A program made the translations under genes and the position numbers. From a virus (Duplodnaviria > Heunggongvirae > Uroviricota > Caudoviricetes), in IMG/VR virus record IMGVR_UViG_3300045988_109904, positions 1-19,859 of that record: a stretch of DNA of 19,859 nucleotides. The stretch is one strand, 5' to 3'. This document shows, in pieces, positions 13,140 to 19,859 of the stretch. The notes beneath the pieces are model-generated. The model worked only from the letters and a program-made list of their open reading frames with translations. It was not told the origin of the DNA and ran no database searches. Position 1 is the first letter of the stretch. Each line of letters starts with the position of its first letter.

Positions 13140-13312
13140 TGTCAGGAGTCCTGAATAGTGATTAGAGGAGTCACATGTCGGCATCAGTTTCCCGACGATA
13201 CGCATCCTCCGCCATCAGTCCCGGATGGCTTATCACTGACACAACAGCACCTTAGCGAATCGCGGGGCGCGACTCAGTAGCCTTGCCGTGTATTCATCAC
13301 GGCGAGGTATTC
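13140..13312. promoter_or_regulatory. Divergent O/P intergenic region: expected site of the divergent late promoters (P_O and P_P)
   Basis: 173-bp gap between divergently transcribed O (minus) and P (plus). The call is positional, from P2 organisation. I found no perfect TGT-N12-ACA late-promoter dyad by eye. Confidence 0.4.
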
Positions 13313-15085
13313 ATGACCATCACCACAGACACCACTCTTTTACACGACCCGCGTCGTCAGGCGGCGCTGCTGTACTGGCAGGGGTTTTCCGTGCCGCAGA
13401 TTGCCGCCATGTTGCAGATGAAACGCCCGACGGTGCAGAGCTGGAAACAGCGCGACGGCTGGGACAGCGTTGCCCCCATCAGCCGTGTCGAAATGAGCCT
13501 GGAAGCGCGGCTGACCCAGCTCATCATCAAACCGCAGAAAACCGGCGGTGACTTCAAGGAAATTGACCTGCTGGGACGCCAGATTGAACGACTGGCACGG
13601 GTAAACCGCTACAGCCAGACCGGCAACGAGGCAGACCTTAATCCGAACGTCGCTAACCGCAACAAAGGCGGGCGTCGCAAACCGAAAAAGAATTTTTTCA
13701 GTGACGAAGCCATCGAAAAGCTGGAGCAGATTTTCTTTGAGCAGTCTTTCGACTATCAGTTGCACTGGTATCGCGCCGGGCTTGAGCACCGCATCCGCGA
13801 TATCCTGAAATCCCGCCAGATTGGCGCGACGTTTTATTTTTCCCGCGAGGCACTGCTGCGCGCCCTGAAAACCGGTCATAACCAGATTTTTCTGTCGGCC
13901 AGTAAAACGCAGGCGTATGTGTTCCGCGAATACATCATCGCCTTTGCCCGTCTGGTGGACGTTGACCTTACCGGTGACCCGATTGTCCTGGGCAATAACG
14001 GCGCAAAACTGATTTTTCTCGGCACCAACTCCAACACCGCGCAGAGCCATAACGGCGACCTGTACGTCGATGAGATTTTCTGGATCCCGAATTTTCAGGT
14101 ACTGCGTAAGGTGGCATCAGGTATGGCCTCACAGAGTCACCTGCGCTCGACCTATTTCTCCACCCCGTCCACGCTGGCGCACGACGCCTACCCGTTCTGG
14201 TCAGGTGAACTGTTCAACCGGGGACGTGCCAGCGCCGCCGAACGTGTGGAAATCGACGTCAGTCATAACGCCCTTGCCAGCGGGCTTCTCTGTGCGGACG
14301 GCCAGTGGCGGCAGATTGTCACCATTGAGGACGCCCTGAAAGGCGGCTGCACACTGTTCGACATTGAGCAGCTCAAACGTGAAAACAGCGCCGACGATTT
14401 TAAAAACCTGTTCATGTGTGAATTTGTTGACGACAAGGCGTCGGTGTTCCCGTTCGAGGAGCTGCAACGCTGCATGGTCGACACGCTGGAAGAATGGGAA
14501 GACTATGCACCCTTTGCCGCCAATCCGTTCGGCTCCCGCCCGGTATGGATTGGTTACGACCCGTCACACCGTGGCGACAGTGCCGGATGCGTGGTGCTGG
14601 CACCGCCGGTGGTGGCCGGTGGCAAATTCAGAATACTTGAGCGTCACCAGTGGAAAGGCATGGACTTTGCCACTCAGGCTGAATCCATCCGCAAACTCAC
14701 CGAAAAATACAACGTCGAATACATCGGTATTGATGCCACCGGCCTCGGTGTCGGCGTGTTCCAGCTCGTGCGCTCGTTCTATCCCGCCGCGCGCGATATC
14801 CGCTACACACCGGAAATGAAAACCGCAATGGTGCTCAAGGCAAAAGACGTTATCCGCCGTGGCTGTCTGGAATATGACGTCAGCGCCACCGACATCACCA
14901 GCTCGTTTATGGCTATCCGCAAGACCATGACCAGCAGCGGACGCAGCGCCACTTATGAGGCCAGCCGCAGCGAGGAAGCCAGCCACGCCGACCTCGCCTG
15001 GGCGACCATGCACGCCCTGTTAAATGAGCCACTCACCGCCGGTATCAGCACCCCGCTGACATCCACCATTCTGGAGTTTTACTGA
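13313..15085 (+). CDS. P: Terminase large (ATPase) subunit P (P2 gpP-like)
   Basis: I trimmed the track ORF to ATG at 13313 (GAGGT 4 nt upstream; the track start at 13283 is TTG). The 590-aa product starts MTITTDTTLLHDPRRQAALLYWQGFSVPQIAAM; this length equals P2 gpP. Its TGA overlaps the Q ATG. Confidence 0.93.
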   Translation: MTITTDTTLLHDPRRQAALLYWQGFSVPQIAAMLQMKRPTVQSWKQRDGWDSVAPISRVEMSLEARLTQLIIKPQKTGGDFKEIDLLGRQIERLARVNRYSQTGNEADLNPNVANRNKGGRRKPKKNFFSDEAIEKLEQIFFEQSFDYQLHWYRAGLEHRIRDILKSRQIGATFYFSREALLRALKTGHNQIFLSASKTQAYVFREYIIAFARLVDVDLTGDPIVLGNNGAKLIFLGTNSNTAQSHNGDLYVDEIFWIPNFQVLRKVASGMASQSHLRSTYFSTPSTLAHDAYPFWSGELFNRGRASAAERVEIDVSHNALASGLLCADGQWRQIVTIEDALKGGCTLFDIEQLKRENSADDFKNLFMCEFVDDKASVFPFEELQRCMVDTLEEWEDYAPFAANPFGSRPVWIGYDPSHRGDSAGCVVLAPPVVAGGKFRILERHQWKGMDFATQAESIRKLTEKYNVEYIGIDATGLGVGVFQLVRSFYPAARDIRYTPEMKTAMVLKAKDVIRRGCLEYDVSATDITSSFMAIRKTMTSSGRSATYEASRSEEASHADLAWATMHALLNEPLTAGISTPLTSTILEFY

Positions 15086-16119
15086 TGAGCAAGAAAAAAG
15101 GGAAAACACCGCAACCTGCGGCAAAAAAAATGACCGCCAGCGCCCCGAAAATGGAGGCATTCACCTTTGGTGAGCCGGTGCCGGTGCTCGACCGCCGTGA
15201 CATTCTGGATTACGTCGAATGTATCAGTAACGGCAGATGGTATGAGCCGCCGGTCAGCTTTACCGGTCTGGCAAAAAGCCTGCGTGCTGCCGTGCATCAC
15301 AGCTCACCGATTTACGTCAAACGTAATATTCTGGCTTCAACGTTTATCCCGCACCCGTGGCTTTCCCAGCAGGATTTCAGCCGCTTTGTGCTGGATTTTC
15401 TGGTGTTCGGTAATGCGTTTCTGGAAAAGCGTTACAGCACCACCGGTAAGGTCATCAGACTGGAAACCTCACCGGCAAAATATACCCGCCGTGGCGTGGA
15501 GGAGGATGTTTACTGGTGGGTGCCGTCCTTCAACGAGCCGACAGCCTTCGCGCCCGGCTCCGTGTTTCACCTGCTGGAGCCGGATATTAATCAGGAGCTG
15601 TACGGCCTGCCGGAATATCTCAGCGCCCTTAACTCTGCCTGGCTGAATGAGTCGGCCACGCTGTTCCGCCGCAAGTATTACGAAAATGGCGCACATGCCG
15701 GATACATCATGTACGTCACCGATGCCGTGCAGGATCGCAACGATATCGAAATGCTTCGCGAAAACATGGTGAAGTCGAAAGGCCGCAACAACTTTAAAAA
15801 CCTGTTTCTCTATGCCCCGCAGGGGAAAGCCGACGGCATTAAAATTATCCCGCTCAGTGAAGTGGCGACGAAGGACGATTTTTTTAATATCAAAAAAGCC
15901 AGCGCCGCTGACCTGCTGGACGCACACCGCATCCCCTTTCAGTTGATGGGTGGCAAGCCGGAGAACGTCGGGTCACTGGGTGATATTGAGAAAGTGGCAA
16001 AGGTCTTTGTCCGCAATGAGCTAATCCCGTTACAGGACAGGATTCGGGAAATAAACGGCTGGCTCGGCCAGGAGGTCATCCGCTTTAAAAACTACTCACT
16101 GGACACTGACAACGGCTGA
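15085..16119 (+). CDS. Q: Portal protein Q (P2 gpQ-like)
   Basis: 344-aa ORF with ATG at 15085 overlapping the P stop (ATGA). It is followed by a strong terminator and the cos match, as in P2. Confidence 0.93.
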   Translation: MSKKKGKTPQPAAKKMTASAPKMEAFTFGEPVPVLDRRDILDYVECISNGRWYEPPVSFTGLAKSLRAAVHHSSPIYVKRNILASTFIPHPWLSQQDFSRFVLDFLVFGNAFLEKRYSTTGKVIRLETSPAKYTRRGVEEDVYWWVPSFNEPTAFAPGSVFHLLEPDINQELYGLPEYLSALNSAWLNESATLFRRKYYENGAHAGYIMYVTDAVQDRNDIEMLRENMVKSKGRNNFKNLFLYAPQGKADGIKIIPLSEVATKDDFFNIKKASAADLLDAHRIPFQLMGGKPENVGSLGDIEKVAKVFVRNELIPLQDRIREINGWLGQEVIRFKNYSLDTDNG

Positions 16120-16124
16120 ACATC

Positions 16125-16146
16125 GCCGCCTGCGGGCGGCTTTTTT
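16125..16146 (+). terminator. Rho-independent terminator after Q
   Basis: Stem gccgcc (16125-16130) / ggcggc (16135-16140) with loop tgcg, followed by TTTTTT (16141-16146), 5 nt after the Q stop codon. Confidence 0.75.
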
Positions 16147-16288
16147 ACACCCCGTCATCACGCCCTCACACGCTCACCACCGCACAAAACACCCCGCAGA
16201 CACACCAACGCCCTAGCAGGCCAAGTAAACGCCTTCACGACGCGCTCAGACGCTGAAAAAATAAAATCCGCACCACCGCCAGCGCGCA

Positions 16289-16307
16289 GTGCTTTCCCCG
16301 CCTCGCC
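16289..16307. other. cos site (19-nt cohesive-end sequence of P2/P4 type)
   Basis: The minus strand of 16289..16307 reads GGCGAGGCGGGGAAAGCAC, which matches the P2 cohesive-end sequence as I recall it. It lies in a C-rich region about 170 bp past Q, where cos sits in P2. Confidence 0.65.
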
Positions 16308-16325
16308 CGCCCGCTTCATAGGGCG

Positions 16326-16347
16326 CTTTTAATGCAATTGCATTAAA
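16326..16347. repeat. Perfect 22-bp palindrome ttttaatgcaa|ttgcattaaaa
   Basis: The two halves are exact reverse complements with no spacer. It lies 19 bp from the cos match, at the GC-rich to AT-rich transition. Function is unknown (candidate protein-binding site). Confidence 0.85.
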
Positions 16348-16631
16348 ACACAGTAACCGCATCAACACTGGTAACAAACATGGAAAAGCATGGCAACTAA
16401 CACACGCAAAAAAATGCACTTAATGAATGCAGTAATAAAAATCTCAGGAAATTGACAATTCATTTATTTTTTCAAAATCCCAGTTAGTTAAAGGCTCGCT
16501 ATCATTACAAGCAATCAAAAAATGTCTTAGCTCTAACAGCAAGTAGTAATAGTAGTTGCCACCAACAAGCGTTAACATTACCATAACAAACAACAAGCAT
16601 TCCTACACCTACATCAGATGAACAGGTAATT

Positions 16632-17996
16632 ATGATTAATTTAATTATGGGTGGTTTTCCCGACCACTACGACCACTGGAAACCATTCAGCCAAAATAAT
16701 GGAGAATTCTCATTTCTTTTATCACGAATGTTTGAAAACACCTCCGATGGTATTCGCAAAAAACTATCCCCATTAAGCAGCAATGTACTATCTTATCTTG
16801 AAAAACTCCCAACAATATTCATGAGTGAAGCTTATCAAATAGAGGGAGCAAAACCTTATTATGTCGACATACGAATTGGAAGAATTTCAAATATTCACAT
16901 TAAGGGAAAAGAAATCAACTTCCAATTTGCAATCACCCATACACACAATGAAATCAAAATATCAGACGCCAAAAGTGTTGAAAGCAGTTTAGAACTCGGA
17001 ACTTATGGCCTTAAAAGAACACACTGGGCCATAAAAGACAAAAATATAGATGATATCCTTAAGACATTTGGTATTAACCAAAATGCACAAGTGGATAGCA
17101 GTCCAGCGCCTCTCCCAGACGAAGATAGCACATTATTAACCGTAAATAGTTTACAAGAATTTATTGAAAAAGTTCTCCATATAACAGCAGATATGGATGA
17201 GGAGATTTTTTACAGGGGTCATTCAGATTCATCTTATGAACTTGCACCATCTCTTTTCAGAAAATATGAAAATGGGAACTATAAATTTCTACATAATGAA
17301 ATCAACCTTGTTAAAGAAGCATTGAGCGCAAGACCCTCAGAATTCATTGATGATACATCAATGCTTGATAAACTTGTAAGAATGCAACATTATGGCATAC
17401 CTACTCGCTTACTTGACATCACATCAAATCCATTAATTGCACTTTATTTTGCATGCAGTAGTATAAATTCCGACAAAAACGATATCGATGGTCAAGTAAT
17501 AATATTTAAAACACACAGAGAGAACATTAAATTTTTCGATTCCGACACTGTCAGTTGCATATCTAATTTATGCATGCTATCAAAAGACATGAAAGACAAG
17601 CTTTCTTTCGAAGAAAGAAATAATGATTTTAACAACTCTCATGCTTGCCTTAAACTCTTAGAATCCATAAAGCATGAAAAACCATATTTTCAAAGCATAA
17701 TAAATCCAGATGATTTGGAAAAGATAATTTTTGTAAAAAGCAGGATAAATAATGAAAGAATATCATCTCAATCCGGTGCCTTTTTATTATTCGGTAATAA
17801 CGCCGTTTTTCCTGAGATATCCAACGATCAGGCAGATAATTCACCATACAACTTTAAGACAGAAAAAATAAACATCAGAGACAAAAAGAAAATTTTAAAA
17901 GAACTTGCCGTGCTCAATATTACTGATGCCACTGTATATTTAGGATTGGAAAGAACAATGAAACTAATCACAGAAAAATACACATTAAAAAATTAG
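16632..17996 (+). CDS. FRG-domain protein (454 aa) with an unassigned ~190-aa N-terminal domain; candidate anti-phage cargo
   Basis: ATG at 16632 (AGGT 4 nt upstream), TAG at 17994-17996. The central region carries FRG-family signature strings: FYRGHSDSSYELAPSLFRK (from aa 193) and QHYGIPTRLLDITSNPLIALYFAC (from aa 252). The gene is AT-rich, unlike the phage core. Confidence 0.85.
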   Translation: MINLIMGGFPDHYDHWKPFSQNNGEFSFLLSRMFENTSDGIRKKLSPLSSNVLSYLEKLPTIFMSEAYQIEGAKPYYVDIRIGRISNIHIKGKEINFQFAITHTHNEIKISDAKSVESSLELGTYGLKRTHWAIKDKNIDDILKTFGINQNAQVDSSPAPLPDEDSTLLTVNSLQEFIEKVLHITADMDEEIFYRGHSDSSYELAPSLFRKYENGNYKFLHNEINLVKEALSARPSEFIDDTSMLDKLVRMQHYGIPTRLLDITSNPLIALYFACSSINSDKNDIDGQVIIFKTHRENIKFFDSDTVSCISNLCMLSKDMKDKLSFEERNNDFNNSHACLKLLESIKHEKPYFQSIINPDDLEKIIFVKSRINNERISSQSGAFLLFGNNAVFPEISNDQADNSPYNFKTEKINIRDKKKILKELAVLNITDATVYLGLERTMKLITEKYTLKN

Positions 17997-18023
17997 CATT
18001 CCATAACCAAAATATCTCCATAC

Positions 18024-18052
18024 TTCCCCGCAGAAATTAAGGCTACGGGGAA
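18024..18052. terminator. Hairpin between the convergent FRG and RT genes (possible bidirectional terminator)
   Basis: 7-bp stem ttccccg (18024-18030) / cggggaa (18046-18052) with a 15-nt loop, in the 108-bp gap between the two stop codons. The long loop and absence of a clean U-tract make this a weak call. Confidence 0.3.
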
Positions 18053-18104
18053 ATAACATCAGTAAGTATCTTAAGAACAATATAATCACTTACAGGAACC
18101 TGTA

Positions 18105-19082
18105 TTAAAGTGCAGTACTTGCTTTTAATGTAAGCACCTTTGATCTATAACGTTGTTCAATTACCCCCATAGAATGCAATCGTCCAAATAACTTTTTGGC
18201 AGTATGAGTTTCTCTTGCACACGCTGCATCCTTTATCATTTTCCAATATTCAATTTCTTGAGACATTAAAAGATGCTGCTTATTCCTGACTTTTAAAGAA
18301 CCGCCCAAAACAATAACACCTGTTACCAACTTAGGCTTTTCTCTACTATAAATTTTTGTTTTATCCGCATGCATCACATGACCATGCTTATTTATTATTT
18401 TGCGAATCACTGAACAAAATAGTCTATTAACGTTTTGTCCTGAAAAAGTTAGATCATCAACATAAACAGACATATTTACGTGTAGTTTATTACAAAGTTG
18501 GTGTATTTCTCCGAACATTCTTGAATTTGCAAAATATGCAAGAGGCATACTAATCCTGCTACCTGTAGGCAAACGCCCATAGCAAGTACATATATACGAT
18601 AATACATCCGCAACATCAGATGACATCTTCATAACAGAAAAAAAGAATGAAAATATCATTTCTCTAGTAGTTGATGGAAAAAAAGCCCTGATGTCGGTTG
18701 TCATCAACCTTTCATTATTAAGGTGGATTTTAGCATTAGTAACATTAGAACATCCCTTCTTTCCAGAATGTAGATAATCTGGCAAGGTAATTCGCGATAG
18801 CAGACTTGCAATACGAGTATGCACCACATCTAATTTTTCTAATGGTTTTTGTATCTTACGTGGCTTTCCGTTTTTAGATAACTGTTCAAAAATAGAATAA
18901 TTGCCTTCATCTTTTTTTAAGGTTGATAAATCCCCTACATCAACCCCCAATAAAGAAGCCAATTTCCTTTTACTTCTCATTTTATAAAACGGCGAATCAA
19001 TTATATCGTAAGATTTATTTTTAGTGGAAATTTTGAGTTTTATTCGTCTTTTCATTTTTCTTATTCGCCCACTCAATAACAT
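18105..19082 (-). CDS. Reverse transcriptase, retron-type (about 316-325 aa)
   Basis: ATG at 19082 (alternative ATG at 19055), TAA at 18105-18107. It has RT catalytic YVDD (aa 207-210, nt 18464-18453), LPTGSRISMPLA (the QGxxxSP-like motif), and two retron-RT hallmarks: NAxxH (NAKIH, aa 116-120) and VTG (KLVTGVIV, aa 252-259). Size matches retron RTs (Ec86 RT is about 320 aa). Confidence 0.88.
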   Translation of the reverse strand: MLLSGRIRKMKRRIKLKISTKNKSYDIIDSPFYKMRSKRKLASLLGVDVGDLSTLKKDEGNYSIFEQLSKNGKPRKIQKPLEKLDVVHTRIASLLSRITLPDYLHSGKKGCSNVTNAKIHLNNERLMTTDIRAFFPSTTREMIFSFFFSVMKMSSDVADVLSYICTCYGRLPTGSRISMPLAYFANSRMFGEIHQLCNKLHVNMSVYVDDLTFSGQNVNRLFCSVIRKIINKHGHVMHADKTKIYSREKPKLVTGVIVLGGSLKVRNKQHLLMSQEIEYWKMIKDAACARETHTAKKLFGRLHSMGVIEQRYRSKVLTLKASTAL

Positions 19083-19353
19083 CTAATACTTTACCAGCTA
19101 AATTTAAACGGAAACGCTTAGATAAACGCCCCTGCGTACCTAACGATTCTGAAAAAAATACTAAAGAAGATACCGGCATATCGAAATGGGAGGCGTAACG
19201 CTGTAAAACATCAATTGTAGGCGACCAAACCCCACTTTCGAGTTCTACTATTTTTTCTTTTGGAATACCTAAAGATGTTGATAAATCAACCAATGACTCT
19301 TTATGGTATTGCCTTATTAAACGAAGGGCTCTGTGTAACATAGGCAACTCCAT
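19021..19353 (-). CDS. XRE-family helix-turn-helix protein (110 aa) immediately upstream of, and overlapping, the RT gene
   Basis: ATG at 19353 (alternative ATG at 19341 with GGAG 6 nt upstream). HTH_XRE-like segment LRLIRQYHKESLVDLSTSLGIPKEKIVELESGVWSPTIDVLQRYASHF. Its 3' end overlaps the RT 5' end by about 35-60 nt, suggesting co-translation. Confidence 0.75.
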   Translation of the reverse strand: MELPMLHRALRLIRQYHKESLVDLSTSLGIPKEKIVELESGVWSPTIDVLQRYASHFDMPVSSLVFFSESLGTQGRLSKRFRLNLAGKVLDVIEWANKKNEKTNKTQNFH

Positions 19354-19377
19354 GCTATTGAAACTAGGGAGGACGCA

Positions 19378-19533
19378 TTACTCATCACCCCCTTCAAAGT
19401 AGTCCAGTGCTCGAGTGGCTAAATCAAACAGTCTAATACCCCATTTGATTAATTTCCAAACATAACCAGCCCACTTTTTCAGGTTTGACTTGTTCTGCGC
19501 CTGCTGTTCGTTGGTTAATTTATCATTCTTCAT
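19378..19533 (-). CDS. Small ORF (51 aa) with a strong RBS, between the structured RNA region and the HTH gene
   Basis: ATG at 19533-19531 preceded by AAGGAG 7 nt upstream; stop at 19378-19380. Product MKNDKLTNEQQAQNKSNLKKWAGYVWKLIKWGIRLFDLATRALDYFEGGDE has a Trp-rich amphipathic stretch. The track's 130-aa version starts at TTG and reads through the structured region; I prefer the short form. Confidence 0.45.
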   Translation of the reverse strand: MKNDKLTNEQQAQNKSNLKKWAGYVWKLIKWGIRLFDLATRALDYFEGGDE

Positions 19534-19547
19534 GATTTGCTCCTTAT

Positions 19548-19802
19548 GCCCATAGTGTGCAAACGATATGTCTGCTCCAACACTATGGTTCGCCCTCATA
19601 AGGATGAGATTGAACAGCACTAGCCCCCTGCTCCACGAACCCTTGGTCGCCCAAAGGGTTCGAATACCCATACGCCATACCGCCTGATCCTGTGACTCTT
19701 GTCGCTGGCAGGGGCGTTGCGCGGGGTAAATGTTAGAAAGCGTTAACTTTCCACGGGTAAAGTTACCCAATTGATGGCGATGTATCTCACTAACTAACCA
19801 AT
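19548..19802 (-). ncRNA. Candidate structured non-coding RNA (possible retron msr-msd, or a structured operon leader)
   Basis: Dense inverted repeats on a GC-richer patch: an 11-bp stem with one bulge, cgaacccttgg (19636-19646) / ccaaagggttcg (19651-19662); a perfect 9-bp stem ccatagtgt (19550-19558) / acactatgg (19580-19588); and small hairpins around 19596-19612 and 19749-19770. Direct repeats tggagcag and gggcga(a)cca are also present. It lies downstream of an extended -10 promoter. Boundaries are approximate and a1/a2 repeats were not resolved. Confidence 0.35.
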
Positions 19803-19808
19803 GTTTGC

Positions 19809-19837
19809 ATCATAACAAGTAAACCGTTGTATTTGAT
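19809..19837 (-). promoter_or_regulatory. Candidate sigma70 promoter with extended -10 driving the RT-module transcript
   Basis: Minus strand reads TGtTATGAT (TG at 19817-19816, -10 hexamer 19814..19809). The -35 (atcaaa, 17-bp spacer) is weak. The predicted start near 19802 coincides with the beginning of the structured region. Confidence 0.35.
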
Positions 19838-19859
19838 CTCCCTATATATAATATTTTTT

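Follow-up and report, generated by a model that had tools for sequence, protein, structure and literature searches.

The window, by which we mean the whole 19,859-nucleotide stretch of phage DNA that was analysed, is 100% identical to Peduovirus P2_2H1 (LR595870.1). An AT-rich island (GC 0.30–0.36 in the profile) lies 3′ of the portal gene and ends just short of replication gene A, whose stop codon falls past the window end. In P2_2H1 the retron region is positioned between gene A and the portal gene, in a variable hotspot that is an established site of anti-phage cargo in P2-like phages (Rousset et al. 2022, PMC9122126). The genes considered here are as follows.

13283–15085: terminase gene
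15085–16119: portal gene
16632–17996, plus strand: FRG-domain gene, 454 aa (Pfam FRG, E = 2e-21; PADLOC candidate defence family PDC-S15, E = 7e-98)
18105–19055, minus strand: RT, a retron reverse transcriptase of 316 aa with a YVDD motif (PADLOC RT_VI, E = 1.1e-105; Pfam RVT_1)
19021–19341, minus strand: HTH protein of Cro/C1 type, 106 aa (PADLOC HTH_VI, E = 7.2e-30)
19378–19533, minus strand: SP, a 51-aa small protein and predicted toxin, kept in all homologous loci and carrying QQAQ and FEGGDE motifs

The minus-strand operon reads leader, SP, HTH and RT. The HTH gene has a GGAG ribosome site 5′ of its ATG at 19341 and overlaps the RT start at 19055; the program-made list of open reading frames over-extends both genes (RT to 18105–19082, HTH to 19021–19353), and the starts used here were set by homologues and ribosome sites. 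The RT_VI match spans 278 of 279 profile positions, with RT_III-A as the second-best PADLOC family at 5e-45. Type VI retrons are defined by the SP-HTH-RT gene set and its order, the HTH protein being of Cro/C1 type (cluster 2_1) (Mestre et al. 2020, PMC7736814). Here the RT belongs to the Type VI clade, the HTH gene lies upstream of the RT gene and overlaps it, and SP lies upstream of HTH; the operon is therefore a Type VI retron, carried on a P2-like phage. Its SP shares 70% identity with that of a Yersinia enterocolitica locus, and its RT 71% with a Yersinia RT. The FRG/PDC-S15 gene shares the P2 hotspot with the retron and is convergent to it, and the N-terminal ~170 aa of its product have no family assignment. 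The RT of P2-EC30, reported from the same hotspot (Odegrip 2006), was set aside, being an unrelated Abi-P2 polymerase.

The leader lies directly upstream of the minus-strand operon and is accordingly to be read on the minus strand. Within it, the earlier note had singled out positions 19548–19802 as a densely structured, GC-richer patch, and both properties are borne out. GC content is 0.510 in the patch versus 0.349 in the island at 16250–19547, and the minimum-free-energy (MFE) fold of the minus strand reaches −108.5 kcal/mol (z = −4.99, with 0 of 200 shuffles as good). The plus strand folds less well (z = −2.96), which assigns the structure to the operon's sense RNA; as a correction to that note, all elements are on the minus strand. 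The two strongest stems it described were recovered as well, the 9-bp stem with 9-nt arms at 19550–19558 and 19580–19588 that are 100% complementary (inverted repeat I3), and the 11-bp bulged stem with 9-nt, 100% complementary arms at 19636–19644 and 19654–19662, extended to 11 bp in the MFE fold. The same is true of the short direct repeats, namely two copies of CTGCTCCA and, on the RNA strand, two of GGGCGA (19652–19646 and 19595–19589). An Rfam covariance-model scan of both strands of 16000–19859 returned 0 matches at E ≤ 1, and a tRNA/tmRNA scan, prompted by a GGUUCG-like hairpin, found none. From promoter to 3′ end, the elements of the predicted RNA are the following.

19809–19817, minus strand: extended −10-like element TGtTATGAT (hexamer 19814–19809), recognized by conservation in 21 homologues
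19338–19803, minus strand: predicted hybrid RNA of 466 nt (MFE −164.6 kcal/mol, z = −5.19; consensus fold; pair counts)
19788–19803, minus strand: 5′ terminal stem-loop CAUUG/UAGUG, present in the MFE fold, with 85.7% pairing and little covariation across 21 sequences
19776–19780, minus strand: 5′ single-stranded element UCGCC, complementary to repeats R1 and R2 and paired by RNAalifold with the R1 loop (100% paired)
19754–19769, minus strand: msr-like stem-loop SLa of 6 bp, 97.6% paired, 4 pairs changed on both sides
19735–19752, minus strand: msr-like stem-loop SLb of 7 bp, GGAAAGU/GCUUUCU, 98% paired, 1 pair changed on both sides
19666–19727, minus strand: long imperfect hairpin of 62 nt, the predicted msd (reverse-transcription template), conserved at the base and hypervariable at the apex
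19636–19662, minus strand: hairpin HPx, CGAACCCUU/AAGGGUUCG (inverted repeat I4), with the invariant repeat R1, GGGCGAC (19652–19646), in its loop
19624–19635, minus strand: IR1, UGGAGCAGGGGG, invariant and 94% paired in 21 sequences (RNAduplex)
19612–19619, minus strand: UGCUGUUC, the 5′ strand of a covarying long-range helix with SP codons 8–11 (GAACAGCA, 19509–19502)
19604–19597, minus strand: anti-Shine-Dalgarno (anti-SD) strand UCCUUAUG of the anti-SD:SD helix
19595–19589, minus strand: direct repeat R2, GGGCGAA, in the internal loop adjoining the anti-SD helix, invariant in 21 sequences
19550–19588, minus strand: hairpin HPs (I3), nested within the anti-SD:SD helix, 14 pairs of which 9 changed on both sides
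19541–19548, minus strand: SD strand of the SP gene, CAUAAGGA, sequestered by the anti-SD (covariation and single-sequence MFE)
19359–19371, minus strand: IR2, CUCCCUAGUUUCA, just 3′ of the SP stop codon, nearly invariant though non-coding

An extended −10 promoter had been placed immediately upstream of the patch, and of this claim the −10 part stands. In TGtTATGAT the first, second and sixth letters of the hexamer (T, A and T; 19814, 19813 and 19809) are invariant in 21 of 21 homologues while the surrounding stretch is variable. No −35/−10 pair accompanies it: a two-hexamer consensus scan for promoters and terminators gave nothing at the leader, so the promoter call is one of conservation. 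Transcription is predicted from these letters to start near 19803, very close to the patch boundary drawn in the earlier note. A second −10-like element, TATATA (19845–19850, minus strand), lies ~35 nt upstream of the first, in a stretch that runs to the window end. It aligns with TGnTATAAx of cl2075-type relatives, non-P2 ones included, and may be an additional promoter with its −35 past the window.

IMG/VR, GTDB genomes and metagenomes supplied homologous loci, as did contigs whose encoded RT homologues are 54–80% identical. RT scans supplied 3 loci in genome contigs and 4 in metagenome contigs, and diversity came mainly via protein search with contigs and via IMG/VR; a nine-sequence HTH alignment was too divergent to serve as a scan seed. 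In the RNAalifold consensus of the resulting 21-sequence alignment, 27 of 85 pairs are compensatory. HPx and the anti-SD helix were included in a composite structure of 97 pairs, and this was compared with slid structures and with 500 shuffles. Across the 21 loci the architecture is conserved: 95.5% of cells are paired versus 39–48% in the slid controls, 34 pairs are changed on both sides versus 8–20, and 0 of the 500 shuffles reach the observed value on any of the five measures. The MFE fold of the 466-nt RNA as a single sequence reproduces the composite helices. MAFFT sets the Vibrio-type sequences one column out of register at HPx, so that the 87.7% pairing obtained there is understated, and for three helices, IR1–IR2, the 5′ stem-loop and the 5′ closing one, conservation among the 21 sequences is too high for covariation to show.

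Two features of this architecture bear on the suggestion, made in the earlier note, that the patch is either an msr-msd or a regulatory RNA. The first is the segment at 19727–19666, which folds as one hairpin of 52–88 nt in 21 of 21 homologues though the apical sequences are unrelated, its basal pairs covarying. The adjacent HPx shows compensatory changes in three loci (L021, L033 and L017) and in Vibrio-type loci, and by analogy it is the predicted template for the 5′ stem-loop of full-length msDNA. The 5′ terminal stem-loop may be the counterpart of the ‘upstream stem-loop’ reported for cl2075 retrons. The second feature is the anti-SD:SD helix, which is 99.4% paired in the alignment, has 5 of its 8 pairs changed on both sides and is also present in the single-sequence MFE fold. 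Because it has been kept by compensatory changes across lineages, we argue that sequestration of the SP ribosome-binding site is under selection. The possibility raised earlier that structure gates translation of the small ORF is supported, with the upstream anti-SD strand as the pairing partner of its SD.

The CDS of SP, too, takes part in the fold, forming a covarying long-range stem; the leader-to-CDS helix UGCUGUUC/GAACAGCA in addition has 8 bp, is 100% paired and has 2 pairs changed on both sides. Around the gene, IR1 and IR2 are predicted by RNAduplex to form a 12-bp duplex, 94% paired and invariant in the close 21-sequence set, and one compensatory change, U-A to C-G, occurs in the Vpa2-like locus; this predicted duplex has its counterpart in the IR1–IR2 pairing described for cl2075 retrons. 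In the consensus fold, 19789–19784 is an alternative to 19635–19630 as the partner of GUUUCA.

Several further pairings and repeats were observed in this part of the RNA. The sequence UGGAGCAG occurs twice, in IR1 (19628–19635) and in the apical part of HPs (19572–19579), the second copy being kept in close relatives only. A local hairpin, CUCAU/AUGAG (19595–19608, minus strand), is 94% paired in 21 sequences and mutually exclusive with the anti-SD:SD helix; it could represent the ON state. Between the HTH SD and start codon, GUUGCC (19340–19348, minus strand) is complementary by RNAduplex to GGCGAC of the R1 loop (19646–19652), a match conserved in the E. coli/Klebsiella subgroup only, which may be coincidence or a lineage-specific link to HTH translation. 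Finally, TGTTATGAT, a candidate 5′ inverted repeat that pairs with the SD in the MFE fold, was rejected: it varies as TAnnnT without compensation in the invariant SD.

This RNA has published relatives. Retron-Vpa2 makes a ~470-nt hybrid RNA (hyRNA) that combines the SP ORF with an msr-msd (Zhang et al., bioRxiv 10.1101/2025.10.22.683967). In that system RNA-seq, msDNA mapping and reporter assays show that the msr-msd is linked to a toxin ORF whose translation is repressed; msDNA of 63 and 86 nt maps to the long stem-loop, and translation of the toxic SP needs msDNA. There are two 7-nt direct repeats, one in the msd loop and one in the riboregulator, and derepression requires the additional 23 nt that msDNA has at its 5′ end, in which the repeat lies (10.1101/2025.10.22.683967). 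SP is the toxic effector both in Vpa2 (10.1101/2025.10.22.683967) and in Retron-Sen3 (10.64898/2026.04.27.721009). Among our loci, one from V. parahaemolyticus (L038) encodes SP residues K15, I39, F43 and F45 and HTH residue R7, exactly those mutated in the Vpa2 study. Its leader aligns with that of the window, and its MFE fold shows the same helices made from different sequences: the anti-SD helix CUCUGUAAU/AUUACGGAG, the leader-to-CDS helix UGCUGAUC/GAUCAGCA and CGAGACGGGGG/CCCCCUAGUUUCG, with GGACGAA at both repeat sites. The window region is therefore a member of the hybrid RNA family.

The window and Vpa2 share the operon order leader-SP-HTH-RT, with RTs 54% and HTH proteins 49% identical, and both RNAs are ~470 nt long. 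The helices match one-to-one: two small stem-loops, the msd hairpin, the repeat-1 hairpin, the predicted IR1–IR2, the leader-to-CDS helix, and the anti-SD:SD helix that encloses a hairpin and has repeat 2 beside it. They differ in most helix sequences, in the repeats (GGGCGA in the window, GGACGAA in Vpa2) and in SP, which is barely alignable; Vpa2 is placed in another Type VI sub-lineage, ‘Large’ (Garcia-Rodriguez et al.). In the cl2075 lineage, represented by Retron-Sen3, the ncRNA lies within ~280 nt of SP and has a long stem-loop with a variable centre, together with sequestration of the ribosome-binding site and IR1–IR2 pairing around SP (Garcia-Rodriguez et al., bioRxiv 10.64898/2026.04.27.721009). 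The window shares with Sen3 an SP-HTH-RT retron of Enterobacterales and an ncRNA within ~280 nt of the SP start; the SL3 of Sen3, a system compared by description only, is ~166 nt long as opposed to the 62-nt hairpin here. Retron-Eco12, an E. coli Type VI retron whose full operon under its native promoter defends against lambda-vir, has, like Vpa2, no detectable basal msDNA (10.1101/2025.10.22.683967); matched by description only, it may be the window element or a close relative.

Compared with a canonical msr-msd (Retron-Eco1/Ec86), the leader likewise lies beside an RT of the retron clade, with short msr-like stem-loops 5′ of a long msd hairpin, and its 5′ element and repeat 1 take the a1 and a2 positions. 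In contrast to the canonical form, the RNA runs on into a toxin ORF, terminal inverted repeats lie around that ORF, and in the relatives of the window msDNA is scarce at rest and acts as activator rather than antitoxin. A search of the leader for a canonical a1/a2 pair and branching G yielded none that could be assigned; the a1/a2-like pairing between the 5′ UCGCC and the repeat-1 loop is only 5–7 bp, has no G directly after it and covaries across lineages. The leader does have the features of the hyRNA and cl2075 descriptions, being a covarying RNA continuous with the SP CDS, with a variable-centre stem-loop, the SP ribosome-binding site in a stem and a pair of ~7-nt repeats. This RNA class is already published, as hyRNA (Zhang et al. 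2025) and as the cl2075 ncRNA (Garcia-Rodriguez et al. 2026).

Given these observations, the patch very probably forms the 5′, non-coding portion of the hybrid RNA of a Type VI retron, joining a reverse-transcription template to a translational gate for the SP toxin. That the msr-msd and translational-gate readings hold at once is supported by the Type VI operon and by helix-for-helix homology to the hybrid RNA of the Vpa2-matching Vibrio locus. By analogy with those relatives, the leader and SP would be transcribed as one RNA, the template would be reverse transcribed and SP would be derepressed by msDNA. Minus-strand transcription would run from the −10 element at 19814–19809, through the SP gene, to the HTH start. 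As an msr-msd-like module, this RNA would present two small stem-loops, the long variable hairpin (19727–19666) and the conserved hairpin (19662–19636), and the RT would copy both of the latter into single-stranded DNA. As a riboregulator, it would pair the anti-SD (19604–19597) with the SP ribosome-binding site (19548–19541), long-range helices tying the leader to SP codons 8–11 and to the sequence just 3′ of the SP stop, so that the toxin would be poorly translated at rest. As in Retron-Vpa2, phage recombination or anti-RecBCD functions may cause msDNA to accumulate. Its hairpin loop, complementary to the 7-nt repeat beside the anti-SD, would then open the fold, SP would be made and growth of the infected cell would stop.

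The same RNA could work under a different regime. In Retron-Sen3, ssDNA, which depends on the RT, and SP are made constitutively and control by HTH is post-translational (10.64898/2026.04.27.721009). A locus so armed at all times would use its leader mainly as RT template and as scaffold for an RT-HTH complex; ssDNA and SP would be constitutive, HTH would neutralize the SP protein, RecBCD inhibition would release it, and SD pairing would only tune SP levels. The SP, HTH and RT of the window are closest to Enterobacterales cl2075-type systems, as with the Yersinia RT and SP, and Sen3 belongs to that lineage; since SP similarity leads to a lineage whose Sen3 is controlled by HTH in this way, an msDNA-dependent translational switch may not be the main control at the window locus. 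Against such a regime stand the maintenance of the anti-SD:SD helix by compensatory changes across lineages and the lack of detectable basal msDNA in Retron-Eco12. On balance we regard Sen3-like control as possible, if somewhat doubtful.

Far less probable is a leader or attenuator of the SP-HTH-RT operon that acts purely in cis and has no role as a reverse-transcription template. It would agree with the sequestered SD and with the missing a1/a2 pair and branching G. Yet a hairpin with hypervariable apex and conserved base beside two small stem-loops is the layout of an msr-msd, msDNA maps exactly to the equivalent hairpin of the homologous Vpa2 RNA, and Sen3 yields RT-dependent ssDNA. More improbable still is a coding role. 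The earlier note found no convincing protein ORF in the patch, its one candidate being a frame with a TTG start. This frame (19378–19770), an in-frame 5′ extension of the 51-aa ORF to 130 aa, is open in the window and is annotated in LR595870.1 as a hypothetical protein (VUD38001.1), for which the patch would encode the N-terminal part. It is not conserved among the 21 homologues, however: an in-frame stop lies 3–21 codons upstream of the ATG in 10 of them and the frame is shifted in others, so the region upstream of the ATG is not coding. Near-identical DNA of the extension gives unrelated peptides among homologues, no family match was found for the 130-aa frame, and other records, including RefSeq E. 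coli and Klebsiella phage entries, annotate the 51-aa form. The 130-aa hypothetical protein of the record is thus re-annotated as the 51-aa SP (19533–19378) together with an ncRNA.

Scarcely credible, too, is a P2 backbone element such as a gene A 3′ UTR or terminator, GC-richer because it lies outside the imported island, for although the GC of 0.51 resembles that of the phage backbone (0.54) and the patch abuts gene A, the sequence accompanies the retron at chromosomal non-P2 sites and covaries as one RNA with the SP gene. Leader and retron occur beyond P2 prophages beside yeiP in E. coli C5 (L017) and in a non-phage setting in Dickeya (L030), which makes the leader part of the retron cassette and not of the phage backbone. 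The SP-HTH-RT cassette with its leader appears as one mobile unit shared between P2-like prophages (P2 contexts L018, L019, L028, L029 and L032) and chromosomal sites (L017, L030). The gene adjacent to the RT varies among loci, being FRG/PDC-S15, HNH, DUF8093 or genes for hypothetical proteins.

Within the hybrid RNA reading, one detail is possibly unreported, namely covariation between a single-stranded element near the 5′ end and both 7-nt repeats. In the window UCGCC (19780–19776) is complementary to R1 and R2, and its RNAalifold pairing with the HPx loop could be followed into more distant IMG/VR loci, whose Type VI identity was confirmed by RT_VI and HTH_VI. The repeats differ by lineage (GGCGA, GACGA, GAGG, CUGGU, CCGAGA, CCGAAAG, CGAGA, GAGAG, CGAGG, GGGUGA and GCGAGA), and in each of 12 Type VI lineages a complementary 5–7-mer lies 6–13 nt upstream of SLa. 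Examples of element and repeat are UCGCC/GGCGA, UCGUC/GACGA (Vpa2), CCUCG/CGAGG, ACCAG/CUGGU, UCUCGG/CCGAGA, CUUUCGG/CCGAAAG, UCACCC/GGGUGA and UCUUGC/GCGAGA (with one G-U), among others. Repeats were placed by structural position in segments delimited by hand, since an automatic longest-shared-substring search picked unrelated repeats in several loci, and significance was assessed by reassigning repeats among loci. In the 12-lineage test, 0 of 200,000 reassignments reached the observed complementarity, whether Watson-Crick pairs alone or also G-U pairs were counted, and the figure for a test on six lineages was 2 of 720 permutations. In the close set of 21 sequences, element and repeat form a pairing that is either invariant or wobble-only. 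Where the two repeats differ, some lineages fit repeat 1 better and others repeat 2, as would be expected if the element pairs with both.

The sequence of the element is that of the msDNA loop proposed as activator by Zhang et al., and its position is that of a canonical a1; the text of the two preprints does not mention it. We offer, as a tentative proposal that we rate below an even chance, that the riboregulator has a third, apparently undescribed partner in this 5′ element, which would couple reverse transcription and translation in cis. At rest the element would be held by repeat 1. After reverse transcription of repeat 1, its removal by RNase H or its titration by msDNA, pairing of the element (or of msDNA itself) with repeat 2 beside the anti-SD would turn on toxin translation. 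Mapping of Vpa2 msDNA reaches beyond repeat 1 (10.1101/2025.10.22.683967), and if the three-partner proposal is true, two priming geometries might account for the 63-nt and 86-nt msDNA species. How msDNA opens the riboregulator is listed as an open question by Zhang et al., and the three-partner model is a testable answer to it.

Of 5426 complete E. coli genomes, 100 carry the leader (72–100% identity), which makes it an accessible native model; it was found in Klebsiella phages as well. With each helix now placed by coordinate, mutagenesis can be aimed at any of them. Before 2025, Type VI retrons were thought to be without ncRNA and msDNA. The hybrid RNA reverses the usual retron logic, in that msDNA activates the toxin instead of serving as antitoxin, and the window shows such an RNA on an inducible P2-like coliphage, in a hotspot for anti-phage cargo.
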